Positions 2,688-21,954 of a stretch of DNA of 64,000 bases are shown here, piece by piece. Both the position numbers and the translations under genes were made by a program. The notes beneath the pieces were generated by a model. The model did no database searches. It saw nothing but the letters and a program-made list of their open reading frames with translations, and was not told where the DNA came from. The DNA comes from Franconibacter pulveris DSM 19144 (GTDB lineage Bacteria > Pseudomonadota > Gammaproteobacteria > Enterobacterales > Enterobacteriaceae): assembly GCA_000621185.1 (NCBI GenBank), contig KK211223.1, positions 1-64,000 on the forward strand, read 5' to 3'. How positions within the stretch are numbered: the stretch's first letter is position 1; the number at the start of each line of letters is the position of its first letter.

Positions 2688-4286
2688 ATGAATCAGCAAG
2701 CCACCACCACCGAACTGGCATTCAACCAGCCCTTTAGCGAGCGGGAACGGCAAATACTGACGCCTGAAGCCGTTGAGTTTTTAAGCGAACTGGTTGCCCG
2801 CTTTACGCCGCAGCGTAACAAGTTATTAGCTGCCAGAACGCAGGTACAGCAGGAAATCGATGCCGGCAAGCTGCCCGATTTTATTTCGGAAACGGCTTCC
2901 ATAAGAGAAAGCGAATGGACTATTCGCGGTATTCCAGAGGACTTACAGGATCGCCGCGTTGAAATCACCGGCCCTGTAGAGCGCAAAATGGTGATCAATG
3001 CGCTAAACGCCAATGTGAAAGTCTTCATGGCCGATTTTGAAGACTCGCTGGCGCCAAACTGGGAGAAAGTGATCGACGGGCAGATCAACCTGCGGGATGC
3101 GGTGAAAGGCACCATCACCTGGACCAGTGAAGCTGGCAAAATCTACCAACTGAAGCCCAATCCTGCGGTGTTGATCTGCCGGGTGCGCGGCCTGCATCTC
3201 CCGGAAAAACATGTTACCTGGCGCGGTGAAGCGATCCCTGGCAGCCTGTTCGACTTCGCGCTCTATTTTTTCCACAACCACGAAACCCTGCTCGCCAAAG
3301 GCAGCGGCCCCTATTTCTACCTGCCGAAAACCCAGTCATGGCAGGAGGCCGCCTGGTGGAGCGAGGTTTTCAGCTATACCGAAGACCGCTTCAGCCTGCC
3401 GCGCGGCACCATCAAAGCAACCTTGTTAATCGAAACGCTGCCGGCGGTTTTCCAGATGGACGAGATCCTTCATGCGATGCGCGACCATATCGTGGGTCTT
3501 AACTGCGGCCGCTGGGATTACATTTTCAGCTACATCAAAACGCTCAAAAACCACCCGGATCGCGTGCTGCCCGACCGCCAGAGCGTAACAATGGATAAAC
3601 CCTTTCTGAATGCGTATTCGCGGCTGCTGATTAAAACCTGCCACCGCCGCGGGGCCTTCGCAATGGGCGGTATGGCGGCGTTTATCCCGAGTAAAGATAG
3701 CCAGCGTAACGACTGGGTGCTGAATAAGGTTAAAGCGGATAAAGAGCTCGAAGCGAACAATGGTCACGACGGCACCTGGATTGCGCATCCCGGGCTTGGC
3801 GATACGGTGATGGCGGTCTTTGACAAGGCGCTGGGGGAAAACAAAAACCAGCTGCGCGTCACCCGGGAAGAAGATGCGCCCATTACTGCGCAAGCGCTGC
3901 TGGCGCCTTGCGAAGGCGAGCGTACGGAAGAGGGGATGCGCGCCAATATCCGCGTGGCGGTACAGTACATTGAAGCCTGGATTTCAGGCAACGGCTGCGT
4001 GCCGATTTACGGCCTGATGGAAGATGCCGCGACGGCGGAGATCTCCCGTACCTCTATCTGGCAGTGGATCCACCATCAGAAAACCTTAAGCAACGGCAAG
4101 CTGGTGACCAAAGATCTCTTCCGCCAGATGCTCGCCGAAGAGATGCAGGTCATCCAGGAAGAGCTGGGCGAACAGCGCTTCAGCCATGGCCGCTTTGTAG
4201 AGGCCGCGCGCCTGATGGAGCAAATCACCACCTCGGACGAGCTTATCGACTTCCTCACGCTGCCAGGCTACCGCCTGCTGGCCTGA
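2688..4286 (+). CDS. aceB: Malate synthase A
   Basis: Internal ATG giving [12 protein letters not shown]... (532 aa) matches E. coli AceB. The 19 codons upstream in the tool ORF lack an orthologous counterpart. Confidence 0.95.
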
Positions 4287-16737: not shown

Positions 16738-18327
16738 TCATCCTGCGCCGCGCACACTCTCCCAACTAAGCCCGAACCTCGCCAAGTATTTACGCAGGCG
16801 GTCGGCGTCGTTGGGGTTGCTTTTCTTCTGTCGTGAGACGGCGAAAAGCGCCCGTCCGGCTTCAGAGAGCGTACTGCAACGGCGACAGACGGCGATGACC
16901 GCCGCCAGCTGGTCTTGGTCGAAGAGGTCGAGGGTCGCCGGGTCGACGGGCAGCGCAACGGCGCCGTGCGCAGGCCGCCAGCTTTGTTGCAGCCGCAGAA
17001 TCTCTTCTTCCACCAACGCCTCTGTAATGCGCCCCTGGTCCGCCAGCGTCGCCATGCGCGCAACCGATGCGCCAAGCTCGCGAAAATTGCCCGGCCAGCG
17101 CGCCTGCGGCGAGCAGGCGAAGAGGAGATACCGCTCGCGCGCTGTCTTATCGAAGCGGATTTGCGTTTGCTGCTCCGCGCAGAAGCGCTGCAACTCATAT
17201 TCCACGTTAGGCGCAATATCCTCGCGCCGTTCGGCAAGGCCCGGCAGCGCAAAGGCCCACATGTTGATGCGGGCATAAAGATCTTCACGAAAGCGGCCTT
17301 CGGCGACCCACTGCGTCATGTCGCGATGCGTGCCGGCGATAAGCTGGAAATCGCTGTGCACTTCTTTATCCGAACCAAACGGGAAGAACGTTTTCTCTTC
17401 AATCGCCTTCAGCAACATCGCCTGCTCGTCCAGCCCCAGCTCGGCTATCTCATCGAGAAACAGCACGCCGCCGTCCGCTTCCCGAAGCAGGCCCGCCCGC
17501 GCCTGCTGCGCGCCGGTAAACGCCCCTTTGACATGGCCGAACAGGGTCGACATGGCGTTATCGCCGCGCAGCGTCGCGCAGTTTACCGACACCAGCCGTC
17601 CCTGCACGAGATGACGCGCCTGGCGCAGCTGGAAAATACGTTTCGCGAGAAAGGATTTGCCCGCGCCGGTAGGGCCGGTAAGCAGAATGGGCGCGGTGGA
17701 GCGCAGCGCCACGCGCTCTATCTGGTCAATCAGGCGGTTAAAGGTGGCGTTGCGGGTGTCGATGCCCGCCTTCAGAAACGAGACCGACTGTTGCTGCTCG
17801 CGCTGAAAACGGCTGGTGAGCGTCGCGTAGCGGCTTAAATCGAGGTCGATAACCGAGCAGGTGCCGGCGGCTTTCTCCATGTCCGTAGCCTCGCCCCTGG
17901 CCGGGCTGGTTTGCAGCAGGCTGGCGGGAAGGTAACGCGCTTCCGTCAGCAGGAACCAGCAGATCTGCGCCACATGCGTGCCGGTGGTGATATGCACCAG
18001 GTACTCTTCGTTTTCGGTGTCGAAAGGGTAGTGCGTGGCGAAGTCGAGAAAGGCGGCGTAAACCTCTTCAAAATCCCACGGGTCAAGAATCGTTACAGGG
18101 TGGCGGCGTACCTGCGTCTGCGGCGAAACGACAGCGATGTCTTCGCTAAGCTGCTCCGCCATGCCTTTATCCCGCGGCTGGTGCAGCAACTCCAGCCGGT
18201 CGACGGGAAAACCGGGCTGCTGGCAAAGACCGACGGTGGGCCGCCATTTCTTCCAGCGGTTCTCCCGCTTGCCGCGCTTGTCCAGCACCGTACCCAACAC
18301 GCCAATCACTACCCGCCGCTTTTGCAT
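16738..18327 (-). CDS. rtcR: Sigma54-dependent regulator RtcR (CARF-AAA+-HTH, 529 aa)
   Basis: ~60% identity along its length to remembered E. coli RtcR. It has the GAFTGA motif (GHVKGAFTGAQ), a Walker A motif (GPTGAGKS), and the C-terminus DADRLRKYLARFGLSWE. Confidence 0.9.
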   Translation of the reverse strand: MQKRRVVIGVLGTVLDKRGKRENRWKKWRPTVGLCQQPGFPVDRLELLHQPRDKGMAEQLSEDIAVVSPQTQVRRHPVTILDPWDFEEVYAAFLDFATHYPFDTENEEYLVHITTGTHVAQICWFLLTEARYLPASLLQTSPARGEATDMEKAAGTCSVIDLDLSRYATLTSRFQREQQQSVSFLKAGIDTRNATFNRLIDQIERVALRSTAPILLTGPTGAGKSFLAKRIFQLRQARHLVQGRLVSVNCATLRGDNAMSTLFGHVKGAFTGAQQARAGLLREADGGVLFLDEIAELGLDEQAMLLKAIEEKTFFPFGSDKEVHSDFQLIAGTHRDMTQWVAEGRFREDLYARINMWAFALPGLAERREDIAPNVEYELQRFCAEQQTQIRFDKTARERYLLFACSPQARWPGNFRELGASVARMATLADQGRITEALVEEEILRLQQSWRPAHGAVALPVDPATLDLFDQDQLAAVIAVCRRCSTLSEAGRALFAVSRQKKSNPNDADRLRKYLARFGLSWESVRGAG

Positions 18328-18461
18328 GTTTATACCTATATATAAAACAATATAAATAATTATAAATTATTGATCGTCATGATAATACCTGAATGGCGGT
18401 CTCTGCTTTTTTATTTTTACTTTTCAATTAATTATTTTTTTATTCGCCCCTTAACTGAAAC

Positions 18462-18477
18462 TGGCACACTTCTGGCA
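18462..18477 (+). promoter_or_regulatory. Sigma54 (-24/-12) promoter of the rtc operon: TGGCACacttcTGGCA
   Basis: GG and GC elements spaced exactly as in TGGCAC-N5-TTGC. It is divergent from rtcR and preceded by a ~110-bp AT-rich UAS/IHF-like tract (18330–18440). Confidence 0.6.
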
Positions 18478-18481
18478 ATAC

Positions 18482-18802
18482 CTGTTATGTCAGCACACTG
18501 GGAGTCGCAGGGGATATGAGCCCCGCCGGCGCACCGGGAGCGGTAATACGTTTTCCAGGGGGCGTTCCGCCAGTGGAAAGACATGGGCGAAAAGTCGGTT
18601 TTATCAGGTTCGATTCCTGATTCGTCACCTCTTCTCCAGAGAGCTATGCAAGCAGTACCCGGTGGTCGGCTGTGATGACCACCCCGAGCGGGCGCCGGTA
18701 ACGACGCCGGGCCGCAGGCAAAACGCGCAGGCAGTCATGGCCCGTTTCCCTGCGGCTCCGTGTCCGCACTCGCGCCGGCAAGTGAAAAACAGGGAGATAA
18801 AA
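18482..18802 (+). ncRNA. Long structured untranslated leader and candidate ncRNA, with a tRNA T-arm-like hairpin at 18604–18620
   Basis: ~320 nt separate the sigma54 promoter from the first ATG with no credible ORF. It is GC-rich and contains hairpins (GGTGGTC-N9-GACCACC at 18661–18683) and a TCAGG-TTCGATT-CCTGA hairpin followed by TTCGTCACC. Confidence 0.3.
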
Positions 18803-19948
18803 ATGAATAACAAAATCACGATTCGAAAAGGCCAGTTGGGTTTACTGGCAAAACAGGGCGACTTTTATCAGGTGCTGGAGGCGGGCGAACATCGCCTGCC
18901 GTGGTTTAACAAACCGGACGTGACCGTGGTGGATGTAAACGGCGACGACGTGGCGCCGGAACTTGCCGATTATCTGCGCCGCTTTCAGCCGGAATGGGTA
19001 GAAAAATATTGCCTGTCTGTCGATACCGCCGAACAGGAAACGGCGGCGCTTTACCGCAACGGCGTACTGCTGGAAATCATCCCGCCGGGCGCGCGTCGGC
19101 TGTTCTGGCGCGATGGCGACAGCCTGCAGGTAAAACGCATGAGCACGCAGGATGTGCACGTGCCCATTGATGTCATGAATGCGGTATTGCAGCCGCGCGG
19201 TCGCAACGAGGCGGTGAAAGGCCGCGAGGCGATCCTGACGGTGCAGGTGCCCGCCTGGCATGTCGGCGTGTTGAAAATTGACGGCGAGACGCAGGCGCTG
19301 CTGCCGCCAGGCTTAAGCGCATACTGGAAAATCAACCACCTCGTGGAGGCGGAAGTGGTGGATACGCGCCTGCAGGCGCTGGAGGTATCGGGCCAGGAGA
19401 TCCTGACCAAAGATAAAGTGAATCTGCGCATCAACCTCGGCGCGAACTGGCGTTATCTCGATGTTCTGCAGGCGTACAGCCAGCTGGCGAAGCCGCTGGA
19501 TTACCTTTATCGCGAGTTGCAGTTTGCGCTTCGCGAAGCGGTAGGGACGCGCACGCTGGATGAGCTGCTGGAGAACAAGCAGGTCATCGACGACGTGGTG
19601 AGCGCGCAGGTGATTGCCCGTATGGCGCCGTTTGGCATTGAGGTCGCGTCAACAGGCGTGAAAGACATCGTGTTGCCCGGCGATATGAAAACCATTCTGT
19701 CGCGGCTGGTGGAGGCGGAAAAATCCGCGCAGGCGAATGTTATCCGCCGGCGCGAAGAGACCGCGGCGACGCGTTCGTTACTGAACACCGCCAAAGTGAT
19801 GGAAAACAACCCGGTGGCGCTGCGCTTAAAAGAGCTGGAGACACTGGAAAGGGTGGCGGAGCGCATCGATAAAATCTCGGTGTTTGGCGGTCTGGACCAG
19901 GTATTGCACGGTCTTGTAAACATTAAAGGAAAGATAAATGCAGCATAA
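18803..19948 (+). CDS. SPFH/band-7 (slipin-like) domain protein without an N-terminal TM segment (381 aa)
   Basis: AGGGAGA RBS. SPFH core (..KDKVNLRINLGANWRY..TRTLDELLENKQVIDDVVSAQVIARMAPFGIEVASTGVKDIVLPGDM..) followed by a coiled-coil tail. Its stop overlaps the rtcB start by 11 nt. Confidence 0.85.
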   Translation: MNNKITIRKGQLGLLAKQGDFYQVLEAGEHRLPWFNKPDVTVVDVNGDDVAPELADYLRRFQPEWVEKYCLSVDTAEQETAALYRNGVLLEIIPPGARRLFWRDGDSLQVKRMSTQDVHVPIDVMNAVLQPRGRNEAVKGREAILTVQVPAWHVGVLKIDGETQALLPPGLSAYWKINHLVEAEVVDTRLQALEVSGQEILTKDKVNLRINLGANWRYLDVLQAYSQLAKPLDYLYRELQFALREAVGTRTLDELLENKQVIDDVVSAQVIARMAPFGIEVASTGVKDIVLPGDMKTILSRLVEAEKSAQANVIRRREETAATRSLLNTAKVMENNPVALRLKELETLERVAERIDKISVFGGLDQVLHGLVNIKGKINAA

Positions 19949-21164
19949 CGATTATCAACTGCTGGCGCGTGAAAACAGCGCGCCGGTAAAAATGTGGACC
20001 AACGGCGTGCCGGTAGAATCAGAGGCGCGCGAACAACTGCTCAAAACGGCGAAAATGCCGTTTATCTTTAAACACCTGGCGGTGATGCCCGATGTGCATC
20101 TGGGTAAAGGCTCGACCATCGGCAGCGTTATTCCGACCAAAGGGGCGATTATCCCGGCGGCGGTGGGCGTGGATATCGGTTGCGGGATGATTGCGGTGCG
20201 CACGTCGCTGACTGCAAGCGACCTGCCGGATAACCTCAGCGGGCTGCGCAGCGCCATTGAGCATGCCGTGCCGCACGGGCGCACCAGCGCACGCGGCCAG
20301 CGGGATAAAGGGGCGTGGAACCGCGCGCCGCAGGAAGTGGACGCGCACTGGGCGCACCTGGCGCCGCGCTTTAAGCGGATCACCGATAAATATCCGAATC
20401 TGCTGAAAACCAACAACTATCAGCATCTGGGCACGCTGGGTACCGGCAACCACTTTATCGAGGTTTGTCTGGACGAGCAGCAGCGAGTGTGGGTCATGCT
20501 GCACAGCGGCTCGCGCGGCGTGGGTAACGCCATCGGCACCCACTTCATCGCGCTTGCTCAGAAAGATATGCAGCGCCATATCGCTAACCTGCCGGATCGC
20601 GATCTCGCTTATTTTGAAGAGGGAAGCAAGCATTATGCGGATTACATCGAAGCCGTCGAATGGGCGCAGGATTTCGCGCGCCATAACCGCGAAGTGATGA
20701 TGTCCCGCGTGCTGGCGGCGCTGTCTCAGGTCATCAAGAAACCCTTTATGACCCAGCAGGAGGCGGTGAACTGCCACCACAACTATGTGCAGAAAGAGCG
20801 TCATTTCGGCGAGGATGTGCTGGTGACGCGCAAAGGCGCTGTCTCCGCGCAGAAAGGGCAGATGGGGATTATTCCCGGTTCGATGGGCGCGAAAAGCTTT
20901 ATCGTGCGCGGTCTGGGCAACGAAGAGAGCTTCTGCTCCTGCAGCCACGGTGCGGGGCGCACCATGAGCCGAACGGCGGCGAAAAAGCGCTTTACGGTGG
21001 AAGATCAGATCCGCGCCACCGCGCACGTGGAGTGTCGCAAAGACAGCGACGTTATCGATGAAATTCCGATGGCGTATAAAGATATCGATGCGGTGATGGC
21101 CGCTCAGGCCTCATTGGTGGAAGTGGTGCATACCCTGCGCCAGGTGGTTTGCGTAAAAGGATAA
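19938..21164 (+). CDS. rtcB: RNA-splicing ligase RtcB
   Basis: 408 aa, ~75% identical to E. coli RtcB (..PFIFKHLAVMPDVHLGKGSTIGSVIPTKGAIIPAAVGVDIGCGM..). Confidence 0.95.
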   Translation: MQHNDYQLLARENSAPVKMWTNGVPVESEAREQLLKTAKMPFIFKHLAVMPDVHLGKGSTIGSVIPTKGAIIPAAVGVDIGCGMIAVRTSLTASDLPDNLSGLRSAIEHAVPHGRTSARGQRDKGAWNRAPQEVDAHWAHLAPRFKRITDKYPNLLKTNNYQHLGTLGTGNHFIEVCLDEQQRVWVMLHSGSRGVGNAIGTHFIALAQKDMQRHIANLPDRDLAYFEEGSKHYADYIEAVEWAQDFARHNREVMMSRVLAALSQVIKKPFMTQQEAVNCHHNYVQKERHFGEDVLVTRKGAVSAQKGQMGIIPGSMGAKSFIVRGLGNEESFCSCSHGAGRTMSRTAAKKRFTVEDQIRATAHVECRKDSDVIDEIPMAYKDIDAVMAAQASLVEVVHTLRQVVCVKG

Positions 21165-21168
21165 AAAA

Positions 21169-21954
21169 ATGGAACTGAACGGCGTTGATGCCGCCATGCG
21201 GGAGCGCGTGCGACACGTGCTGAAAGAAGTGGAAGCGCGCTACGGCGTGAAGGTGCTGTACGCCTGTGAATCAGGCAGCCGCGGCTGGGGTTTCGCCTCG
21301 CCGGACAGTGATTACGATGTGCGCTTTCTTTATGTGCATCCGCCCGAGTGGTATTTACGCGTTGATACGCCGCGCGACGTCATCGAGTTGCCAATAGACG
21401 ACACGCTGGACGTCTGCGGCTGGGAGTGGCGCAAAGCGCTCGGGCTGCTCAAGCGCGCTAACCCGACGCTTATCGAATGGCTCGATTCGCCAGTGGTCTA
21501 TCAGCAGGATGAAAAGGTCATCGCCGCGCTGCGTGAACAGGTGCCTGCATGGTTCTCCGCAGAGCGGGCGCGCTGGCACTACTACTCAATGGCGCGGAAA
21601 AACTTTCGCAGCTATTTGCAGGGCGATACGGTGCGGCTGAAGAAATATTTCTACGTGTTGCGCCCGCTGCTGGCGGTTCGCTGGATAGAAGCGGGCAAGG
21701 GCGCGCCGCCGATGCGTTTTGTCGAATTGCTGGACGGCGTCGTGACCGATCCGCTGCTGCGTCAGGAAATAGACGCGCTGCTGGCGAGAAAACAGCGTGC
21801 GGGCGAGGCGGAGTATGGCGCGGCGATGCCGCGGATACAGGCTTTTATCACGCAGGAGCTGGCGCGCGGCGAAACGCCGCCCGACCTGCCGCATAGTGAA
21901 AAGGCCTGCGCGACCAGGTTAGATACGCTGCTTTATGAAACGGTAATGGCCTGA
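21169..21954 (+). CDS. Pol-beta-superfamily nucleotidyltransferase (261 aa), possibly RlaP-like, occupying the rtcA position
   Basis: Begins 5 nt after the rtcB stop. Minimal NTase signature ..YACESGSRGWGFASPDSDYDVRFLYV.. (GS-x9-D-x-D). No RtcA-like cyclase is present. Confidence 0.8.
   Translation: MELNGVDAAMRERVRHVLKEVEARYGVKVLYACESGSRGWGFASPDSDYDVRFLYVHPPEWYLRVDTPRDVIELPIDDTLDVCGWEWRKALGLLKRANPTLIEWLDSPVVYQQDEKVIAALREQVPAWFSAERARWHYYSMARKNFRSYLQGDTVRLKKYFYVLRPLLAVRWIEAGKGAPPMRFVELLDGVVTDPLLRQEIDALLARKQRAGEAEYGAAMPRIQAFITQELARGETPPDLPHSEKACATRLDTLLYETVMA

Follow-up and report, generated by a model that had tools for sequence, protein, structure and literature searches.

The rtc operon and its leader

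We examined the leader of an RNA repair (rtc) operon in a 64-kb window of Franconibacter pulveris DSM 19144, the window being the whole stretch of DNA analyzed and all coordinates being positions within it. The operon comprises a slipin (SPFH) gene, the RNA ligase gene rtcB, and rlaP, and the divergent gene rtcR lies on the other side of a sigma-54-type promoter (Table 1). Between this promoter and the slipin start codon, positions 18489 to 18802 specify a conserved, highly structured leader RNA of ∼310 nucleotides (nt), which would lie on the same transcript as slipin-rtcB-rlaP from the RtcR/sigma-54 promoter and would be related, in a reduced enterobacterial form, to the tRNA-like RNA or RNAs beside the Band-7/slipin genes of RtcB systems in other bacteria. 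Within this leader, the segment from 18586 to 18629 is, as judged from sequence and covariation, a minimal tRNA mimic that represents the "top half" of a tRNA.

The Pfam families of the flanking genes (RtcR, Band_7, RtcB, and RlaP) are those claimed in an earlier note on this DNA, which had been made from the sequence alone. Among its named relatives, the slipin is closest to that of Franconibacter helveticus (94% identity), and the biochemistry of RlaP has been described (PMC12776372). An rsr/TROVE gene was absent from the operon, whose genes matched Band_7, RtcB, and RlaP in the Pfam search. Based on the usual sigma-54 spacing, transcription is expected to start at approximately 18487 to 18489.

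We compared the locus with 42 orthologous loci from Enterobacteriaceae and Providencia, in which the order was SBF-rtcR-leader-slipin-(rtcB)-rlaP-lysC. The promoter was kept in all 42 loci, its distance to the first helix of the leader was fixed across all of them, and rtcR was syntenic in 40. The earlier note saw no plausible open reading frame (ORF) between the promoter and the SPFH start, and we likewise found no conserved ORF across the T-arm-like element of the leader: each frame anchored on the T-loop, on either strand, held ≤13 stop-free codons in some species. Further, the leader alignment contained indels with lengths that were not multiples of three.

TABLE 1 Features of the leader RNA and of the rtc locus in the window
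Feature	Position	Strand	Description or evidence
rtcR (sigma-54 activator, RtcR/CARF-like N-terminal domain)	16738..18327	-	Pfam RtcR 3.5e-83, Sigma54_activat 1.3e-49; divergent from slipin operon
Sigma-54-type promoter TGGCAC-N5-TGGCA	18462..18477	+	Sequence; conservation in orthologous loci
5' domain of leader RNA	18489..18582	+	Helices 1 to 6, 95 to 100% paired, with compensatory changes
P1	18489-18491/18580-18582	+	Begins approximately at the predicted transcript 5' end
P2	18497-18501/18570-18574	+	RNAalifold, pair counts
P3 hairpin	18507-18526	+	RNAalifold, pair counts
P4	18527-18534/18560-18569	+	RNAalifold, pair counts
P5 hairpin	18537-18556	+	RNAalifold, pair counts
tRNA-like minihelix (putative unit 1)	18586..18629	+	Covariation; like architecture in distant loci L063 and L065
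Minihelix acceptor 5' strand GGCGAA	18586-18591	+	Pairs with UUCGUC
Minihelix linker AAGUCGGUUUUA, 12 nt	18592-18603	+	Stands where the D and anticodon arms would be
T-arm-like hairpin	TCAGG 18604-18608, TTCGATT 18609-18615, CCTGA 18616-18620	+	Sequence
Minihelix acceptor 3' strand UUCGUC (TTCGTC)	18621-18626	+	Followed by the A-CC tail 18627-18629 (A 18627, CC 18628-18629)
Small hairpin CUCU-UCUCCAG-AGAG	18629..18643	+	Predicted in single-sequence folds of long-subfamily leaders; weakly supported
P7 hairpin GGUGGUC...GACCACC	18661..18683	+	5/5 counted pairs changed on both sides
P8 long interrupted helix	18690-18722/18745-18777	+	Holds near-invariant GCCGGUAA and GGCAAAA
Shine-Dalgarno AGGGAG	18791..18796	+	7 nt upstream of slipin ATG 18803
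slipin/SPFH gene	18803..19948 (ATG 18803)	+	Pfam Band_7 5.7e-27; homologues named "slipin family protein"
rtcB (RNA ligase)	19938..21164	+	Pfam RtcB 5.3e-135
rlaP (RNA-ligase-associated Pol-beta-family nucleotidyltransferase)	21169..21954	+	Pfam RlaP PF10127 1.7e-94

The tRNA-like minihelix and the structure of the leader

The hairpin that the earlier note had singled out, TCAGG-TTCGATT-CCTGA, is present together with the strand that follows it (18604 to 18629). It has the form of a tRNA T-arm, with a 5-bp stem, a 7-nt loop of the type TTCRANN, and a G53-C61 closing pair at 18604 to 18620. A perfect hairpin of this type occurred once in the 64-kb window, and at least one was found in 56 of 200 dinucleotide shuffles (28%); therefore, the hairpin by itself is not significant. 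Its significance comes from comparison across species. The motif GGTTCGAWTCC stood at the homologous position in 39 of the 42 orthologous leaders and GGTTCGACTCC in two more. The T-loop and its flanking G-C pairs were invariant in 40 leaders with a mean column identity of 61%, and the T-stem showed compensatory changes. The conservation and compensatory changes for which the earlier note had asked in orthologous leaders are thus present, both in this motif and in the leader as a whole.

RNAalifold predicted 55 pairs in an alignment of 40 nonidentical leaders (A2), and 36 of these pairs had compensatory changes. Paired cells made up 96.9% in the leader alignment versus 89.2% in shuffles, and none of 500 shuffles reached the leader alignment in any of five measures; controls with slid partners gave ∼45% paired and 8 to 10 compensatory pairs. 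The earlier description of the leader as structured is borne out by this covariation but not by single-sequence stability, since the folding energy of the leader was unremarkable compared with shuffles (z = −1.48). On the 3' side of the minihelix, P8 (helices 9 to 11) was 92 to 99% paired, with compensatory changes in 15 of 21 pairs. The stems of the small hairpin that follows the minihelix differ in sequence in Kosakonia and Mangrovibacter.

The T-arm is accompanied by an acceptor-like helix. The earlier note read TTCGTCACC, which directly follows the hairpin, as an acceptor 3' strand plus discriminator, and this reading fits: the strand pairs with GGCGAA (18586 to 18591), and homologous units end in NCCA. 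The minihelix has neither a D-arm nor an anticodon arm. An acceptor-like stem directly beside the T-arm would let both helices stack in the manner of a tRNA. In having an acceptor beside a T-arm, a D-arm that has shrunk to a loop, and an NCC(A) tail, the element resembles tRNA minihelices and the tRNA-like domain of tmRNA, from which it differs in sitting in an mRNA leader, in its 6 bp with one G-U pair, and in its ACC-U tail.

The leaders formed two subfamilies, split by the structure around the T-arm. The long subfamily contains the leader of the window and those of Franconibacter, Siccibacter, Superficieibacter, Kosakonia, Mangrovibacter, and some Enterobacter, and the short subfamily contains those of Citrobacter, Klebsiella, Phytobacter, and most Enterobacter. 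In the long subfamily, UUCGY after the T-stem pairs with an upstream GCGAA. This acceptor helix was 100% paired, with one compensatory change (a double change, GCAAA/UUUGC, in Siccibacter), and the T-stem had compensatory changes at 2 pairs. As a replacement for the acceptor helix, we considered a GNRA-capped hairpin, GAC-AUUU-GCGA-AAA-GUC, which was 87% paired with zero compensatory changes and was rejected. In the short subfamily, the T-arm is part of a three-way junction, and immediately 3' of it comes a closed hairpin that covaries (UUCAUU/AAUGAA, UUCACU/AGUGAA, or UCACC/GGUGA); a closed hairpin in this place was found in this subfamily only, in genera other than that of the window. It is important to note that the junction was judged from individual folds only and that MAFFT misaligned its hairpin.

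Searches with models of known RNAs, which the earlier note had proposed, gave no match in the leader. ARAGORN found no tRNA genes in the window and none in 22 orthologous loci. In Rfam 15, searched in E-value mode, no family matched the window leader (E ≤ 10) or any of eight other leaders (E ≤ 5). The same Rfam search returned RF00005 at 36 to 67 bits on tRNA-like units of distant slipin loci (unit 2; see below), along with weak matches of the YrlA model RF02553, and these served as positive controls. We therefore rejected membership in the tRNA family (RF00005), the window having no cloverleaf, ARAGORN and RF00005 (E ≤ 10) being negative, and the controls being positive. The likeness to a canonical tRNA lies in the T-arm, which fits G53-T-T-C-R-A-N-N-C61, in the acceptor-like helix, and in the discriminator-plus-CC tail. 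A BLASTN search of the leader against 5,426 Escherichia coli genomes found no match. The leader RNA family is not represented in Rfam 15.

Tandem tRNA-like units upstream of distant slipin genes

The full-length slipin family comprised 544 clusters at E ≤ 1e-30, as counted from cluster representatives. An alignment of 41 slipins led to 80 metagenomic loci, ∼60 of them at 44 to 58% identity. In these distant loci, ARAGORN identified a tRNA-like gene on the slipin strand that ended ∼210 to 420 nt upstream of the ATG, with odd and variable anticodons (aat, agc, aaa, agt, or undetermined). Upstream T-arm hairpins on the same strand were present in 42 of the 45 distant loci with enough flank, and 26 loci had two T-arms spaced 70 to 76 nt apart, which mark an upstream unit 1 and a downstream unit 2.

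RF00005 matched unit 2, a canonical cloverleaf whose T-arm (GCGGG-TTCGANT-CCCGC) is nearly invariant. Unit 1 always has an acceptor of 6 to 7 bp directly after the T-stem. Across the 26 loci, the sequences of these stems were unrelated and yet paired, which amounts to strong covariation. Its tail was ACCA, TCCA, GCCA, or ACC. The linker between the acceptor 5' strand and the T-arm of unit 1 varied in length: at 38 to 40 nt it makes a complete tRNA (L098, L100 to L102, and L104), other loci had 15 to 28 nt, and L063 and L065 had only 12 to 14 nt. Unit 1 of L063 and L065 (GTGCAA/TTGCAC, a 12- to 14-nt linker, and an ACC tail) thus has the architecture of the minihelix in the window.

The genes around some of the tandem units were those of an rtc operon. 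Upstream rtcR and a sigma-54 promoter, together with downstream rtcB, were found in L066, L080, and L090, and rlaP was also present in L066 and L090. Therefore, the arrangement is homologous to that of the window and not merely similar. A small hairpin comparable to that after the minihelix follows unit 2 in L066 and L090.

We built separate models of the 5' domain (R1), the minihelix (R2), and the 3' domain, P7-P8 (R3). R1 was made from enterobacterial sequences only (alignment A6) and roughly calibrated. It matched 12 distant slipin leaders, all on the + strand and immediately upstream of unit 1 (E = 0.004 to 0.9). R3 matched Providencia only and no distant loci; its other matches lay inside slipin coding sequence and were discarded as spurious.

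On this comparison, the order in the relatives is 5' domain, unit 1, and cloverleaf unit 2; Enterobacteriaceae would have retained the 5' domain and unit 1, would lack unit 2, and would carry a 3' domain confined to their own order. A full cloverleaf unit was found in none of the 42 Enterobacterales leaders. We assign the minihelix of the window to unit 1 rather than unit 2 with moderate confidence, because the architecture is identical in L063 and L065, because a variable T-stem is typical of unit 1, and because of the spacing from the 5' domain. Whichever unit survived, one tRNA-length unit of the relatives is missing from all Enterobacterales leaders examined.

Several loci had further features. 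Arrays of 10 to 18 same-strand tRNA genes lay directly upstream of distant slipin genes, in the 2-kb flank, in L072, L075, L083, L098 to L101, L104, L107, and L120. The tRNA-like units were the last members of those arrays, which ties slipin to them, and a Pfam search of the genes downstream of slipin in one such locus, L099, was uninformative. L081, an RtcR/sigma-54 locus, had the best match to the 5'-domain model (2080 to 2170), yet no T-arm-like hairpin was present in the 650 nt upstream of its slipin.

Interpretation, alternatives, and further features of the locus

A tRNA-like RNA beside the Band-7 gene of RtcB operons has already been predicted, which lessens the novelty of the leader. 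In some bacteria, the RtcB gene adjoins a gene for a Band-7 protein and a tRNA-like noncoding RNA (b7a-tRNA) that Burroughs and Aravind predicted in 2016 (Nucleic Acids Res), as cited in a later preprint on the structure of YrlA (10.1101/312249). This preprint states that b7a-tRNA "strongly resemble[s] an authentic tRNA," describes it as lacking experimental validation as of 2018, and attributes a cofactor idea to Burroughs and Aravind (10.1101/312249). Other descriptions of a Band-7-associated tRNA-like RNA were not found in the literature searched. We infer that unit 2 of the distant loci is b7a-tRNA. Like b7a-tRNA, the window leader adjoins a Band_7 gene with rtcB next, an arrangement that is conserved, and it has the 5' domain and one tRNA-like unit in common with loci where a canonical tRNA-like gene stands at this position. 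In contrast, the window element has no D-arm or anticodon arm and is unseen by tRNA detectors, whereas unit 2 of the distant loci does resemble a tRNA, and the window leader has additional covarying domains (P1-P5 and P7-P8) when compared with b7a-tRNA as described by the citing preprint. Relative to that description, what appears to be new here is a minimal tRNA-like unit inside a larger covarying leader.

The leader was also conserved where its neighbors were not. In ∼15 of the 42 enterobacterial species, the operon has lost rtcB and rlaP comes right after slipin (L003 to L006, L009, L011, L013, L018, L023, L025 to L027, L034, L036, and L037; slipin end at ∼4625 and rlaP start at ∼4634), and the leader is still fully conserved in these loci. 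The leader, slipin, and RlaP may thus constitute a unit that can do without rtcB next to them. Similarly, the distant tRNA-like units stay beside slipin where the flanks hold no rtcR or rtcB. Because the leader and the units are kept with slipin without rtcB or rtcR, slipin is most likely the partner of the RNA, for which the RNA would serve as a cofactor, scaffold, or substrate mimic, much as a Y RNA does for Ro/Rsr and in agreement with the cofactor idea mentioned above.

The acceptor/T-arm half of a tRNA is the part read by RNase P, the CCA-adding enzyme, TruB, and TrmA. The corresponding half in the leader would be recognized by RNase P, by the 3'-trimming and CCA-adding enzymes, and by TruB/TrmA, and processing by these enzymes could free the minihelix from the mRNA. 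In Salmonella, the operon rsr-yrlBA-rtcBA pairs Ro/Rsr with Y RNAs (PMC7790460). The Y RNA YrlA carries a tRNA-like T-arm module, the T-loop of which is pseudouridylated by TruB, and a Ro-binding motif, GNCGAAN0-1G (PMC4201824). RNase P cuts YrlA with a 7-bp stem but not the YrlA of S. Typhimurium, which has a 6-bp stem (PMC4201824).

What a Band-7/slipin protein and its tRNA-like RNA do in bacterial RNA repair can be tested directly, since a conserved version of the RNA occurs in genetically tractable Enterobacteriaceae, including Citrobacter, Klebsiella, Enterobacter, Kosakonia, Cronobacter, and Franconibacter, under a defined RtcR/sigma-54 promoter, and since alignments of this family, which is outside Rfam 15, are at hand. 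The reduction to the acceptor/T-arm half, along with the 5' domain common to enterics and distant bacteria, helps to delimit the part of the tRNA mimic that is important, and slipin, rather than RtcB or RtcR, is indicated as the constant partner. Nothing established is overturned.

Several observations weigh against the interpretation of the leader as a reduced relative of the distant units and as an RNA partner of slipin. The acceptor of the minihelix is 6 bp, including one G-U pair, and its tail is ACC-U and not ACCA; by the standard of a tRNA end (a 7-bp acceptor, a discriminator, and CCA), the window has 6 bp and A-CC-U, and the homologous units have 6 to 7 bp and NCCA or NCC. In Providencia (L039, leader at 3186 to 3500), the spot of the T-arm is occupied by a hairpin, AACU-UCAUGAU-AGUU, from which the T-loop consensus is gone; this leader still has its promoter, its general architecture, and a 3' domain that R3 matches (E = 0.012). 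R2 matched both units of the distant loci, and it cannot tell unit 1 from unit 2 because the T-arm dominates its score. When enteric leaders were aligned with distant ones in MAFFT, the result was ambiguous and the T-arm of the window fell with that of unit 2; in some loci, the anticodon arm of unit 2 looks like GAC...AAGUCGG of the window. The equation of unit 2, or of the whole leader, with b7a-tRNA depends on the description in the citing preprint. In addition, GAC at 18580 to 18582 has two mutually exclusive partners, GUC 18489-18491 (P1) or GUC 18594-18596. The comparison shows the existence of the leader RNA together with its conservation, secondary structure, homology, and gene association. 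As to function, the proposed role draws on analogy and co-inheritance, with a stable or processed RNA and slipin binding as its predictions. Release of the 6-bp unit in the window is uncertain, and RNase P processing may not occur, given that the 6-bp YrlA of S. Typhimurium is uncut (PMC4201824).

The double partnership of GAC also bears on a reading in which the leader acts mainly in cis, as a tRNA-like sensor or processing signal that controls the stability or translation of slipin-rtcB-rlaP with no trans partner, for example through cleavage by RNase P or RNase E or through switching between alternative helices. We regard this as possible but rather unlikely as the main function. The leader does lie wholly in the 5' untranslated region, between the conserved promoter and the Shine-Dalgarno sequence, and the 3' domain P7-P8, conserved at the level of the order, is beside the latter. 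Mutually exclusive pairings would suit such a switch: in addition to GAC with its two GUC triplets, the strand 3' of the T-arm in the short subfamily pairs either upstream or downstream, and both pairings covary. However, a promoter and terminator scan found neither an attenuator-type terminator in the leader nor an intrinsic one from there to the ATG, and the Shine-Dalgarno sequence was unpaired in the minimum-free-energy fold. The distant relatives hold free-standing tRNA-like genes with an encoded CCA, some in tRNA arrays, which suggests released RNAs. A cis-acting role is compatible with, and not exclusive of, the leader being an RNA partner of slipin. The P1 pairing showed compensatory changes in other genera, and the linker GUC 18594-18596 was invariant in the long subfamily; the alternative GAC/GUC pairing may be a conformational switch.

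A more speculative extension of the partnership with slipin, which we put forward tentatively and think improbable as it stands, is a widespread new class of composite RNAs in which a conserved ∼95-nt 5' domain and one or two tRNA-like units act in a slipin ribonucleoprotein, where the top-half mimic would serve the repair enzymes as a sentinel or as a template substrate. The cleavage, ligation, or 3'-end state of the mimic could then signal damage to tRNAs or bring in RtcB and RlaP. If this were true, one would learn from the enterobacterial form that the acceptor/T-arm half is enough.

The earlier note had suggested a leader-encoded tRNA mimic or a Y-RNA-like RNA working without Rsr. While the first of these is upheld, a true member of the YrlA family is very improbable and disfavored. 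Like YrlA and other bacterial Y RNAs (Chen et al. 2014; Wang et al. 2018), the leader RNA is noncoding, belongs to an rtc operon under RtcR control, and has a tRNA-like module with a consensus T-arm (PMC4201824 for YrlA) as well as a proposed scaffold-protein partner. Just 5' of the T-arm, GGCGAAAAG loosely resembles the Ro-binding motif GNCGAAN0-1G, an imperfect match with two A's before the G instead of 0 to 1 nt, and the closed hairpin after the T-arm in the short subfamily is like the "AS" stem of YrlA. In contrast, the YrlA covariance model (RF02553) had no match in the window (E ≤ 10) or in the eight other leaders (E ≤ 5), although the model was functional elsewhere, and family membership was rejected on this ground. 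The leader also lacks a D-arm and a Ro-binding stem made from its 5' and 3' ends, and the operon lacks an rsr/TROVE gene. The module order of YrlA (T-arm, closed acceptor stem-loop, and D-arm) is not that of the window, where the acceptor 5' strand is upstream of the T-arm, so that the acceptor is open and the tRNA topology unpermuted. Finally, the RNA of the window is upstream of the first gene, whereas YrlA is between rsr and rtcB.

The matches of RF02553 in distant loci were below threshold, at 25 to 28 bits versus a gathering score of 69. They were located at L063 2117-2222 and L087 2102-2161, where they begin at the T-arm of unit 1 and reach towards, or into, the D-arm of unit 2, and at L066 2180-2298, from the T-arm of unit 2 onward downstream. 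These matches may reflect an artifact in which tandem tRNAs resemble YrlA, described by Chen et al. 2014, or else hint at an origin of YrlA from such a tandem.

That the element is a nonfunctional relic, i.e., a tRNA gene in decay or the 3' half of a tRNA remaining from an integration event, the second of which the earlier note had also considered, is disfavored and has little probability. Only the T-arm and acceptor strands are left in the window while relatives have complete units, so a reduction clearly happened. A decaying remnant is nevertheless hard to reconcile with a T-loop and flanking G-C pairs that are invariant in so many leaders of modest overall identity, with the compensatory changes in both the T-stem and the acceptor stem, or with the constant position of the covarying leader in 42 syntenic loci, each from a different species, and the recurrence of the minimal form in the distant L063 and L065. 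The window held no integrase, no repeat, and no tRNA gene. A chance match of the hairpin to the T-loop consensus, for all its frequency in shuffles, is refuted by conservation in 41 of the 42 orthologous leaders and in the distant loci.

Other features of the locus lie outside the leader structure or overlap it. A very AT-rich spacer of ∼130 nt (18330 to 18460) extends from the rtcR start to the sigma-54 promoter and contains a terminator-like hairpin with a T-run at 18395 to 18407 (+ strand); it may be a candidate site for an RtcR upstream activating sequence or for IHF. An in-frame GTG at 18662 could lengthen the slipin ORF by 47 codons (to an ORF of 428 amino acids). We rejected it as the slipin start, as homologues begin at the ATG and the GTG is not conserved and overlaps P7 and P8, but it is a possible trap for automatic gene callers. 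In the distant locus L087, positions 1 to 143 (− strand), at the contig end, contained a partial bacterial RNase P RNA of class A (75.9 bits), which adjoins the 3' end of rtcR.

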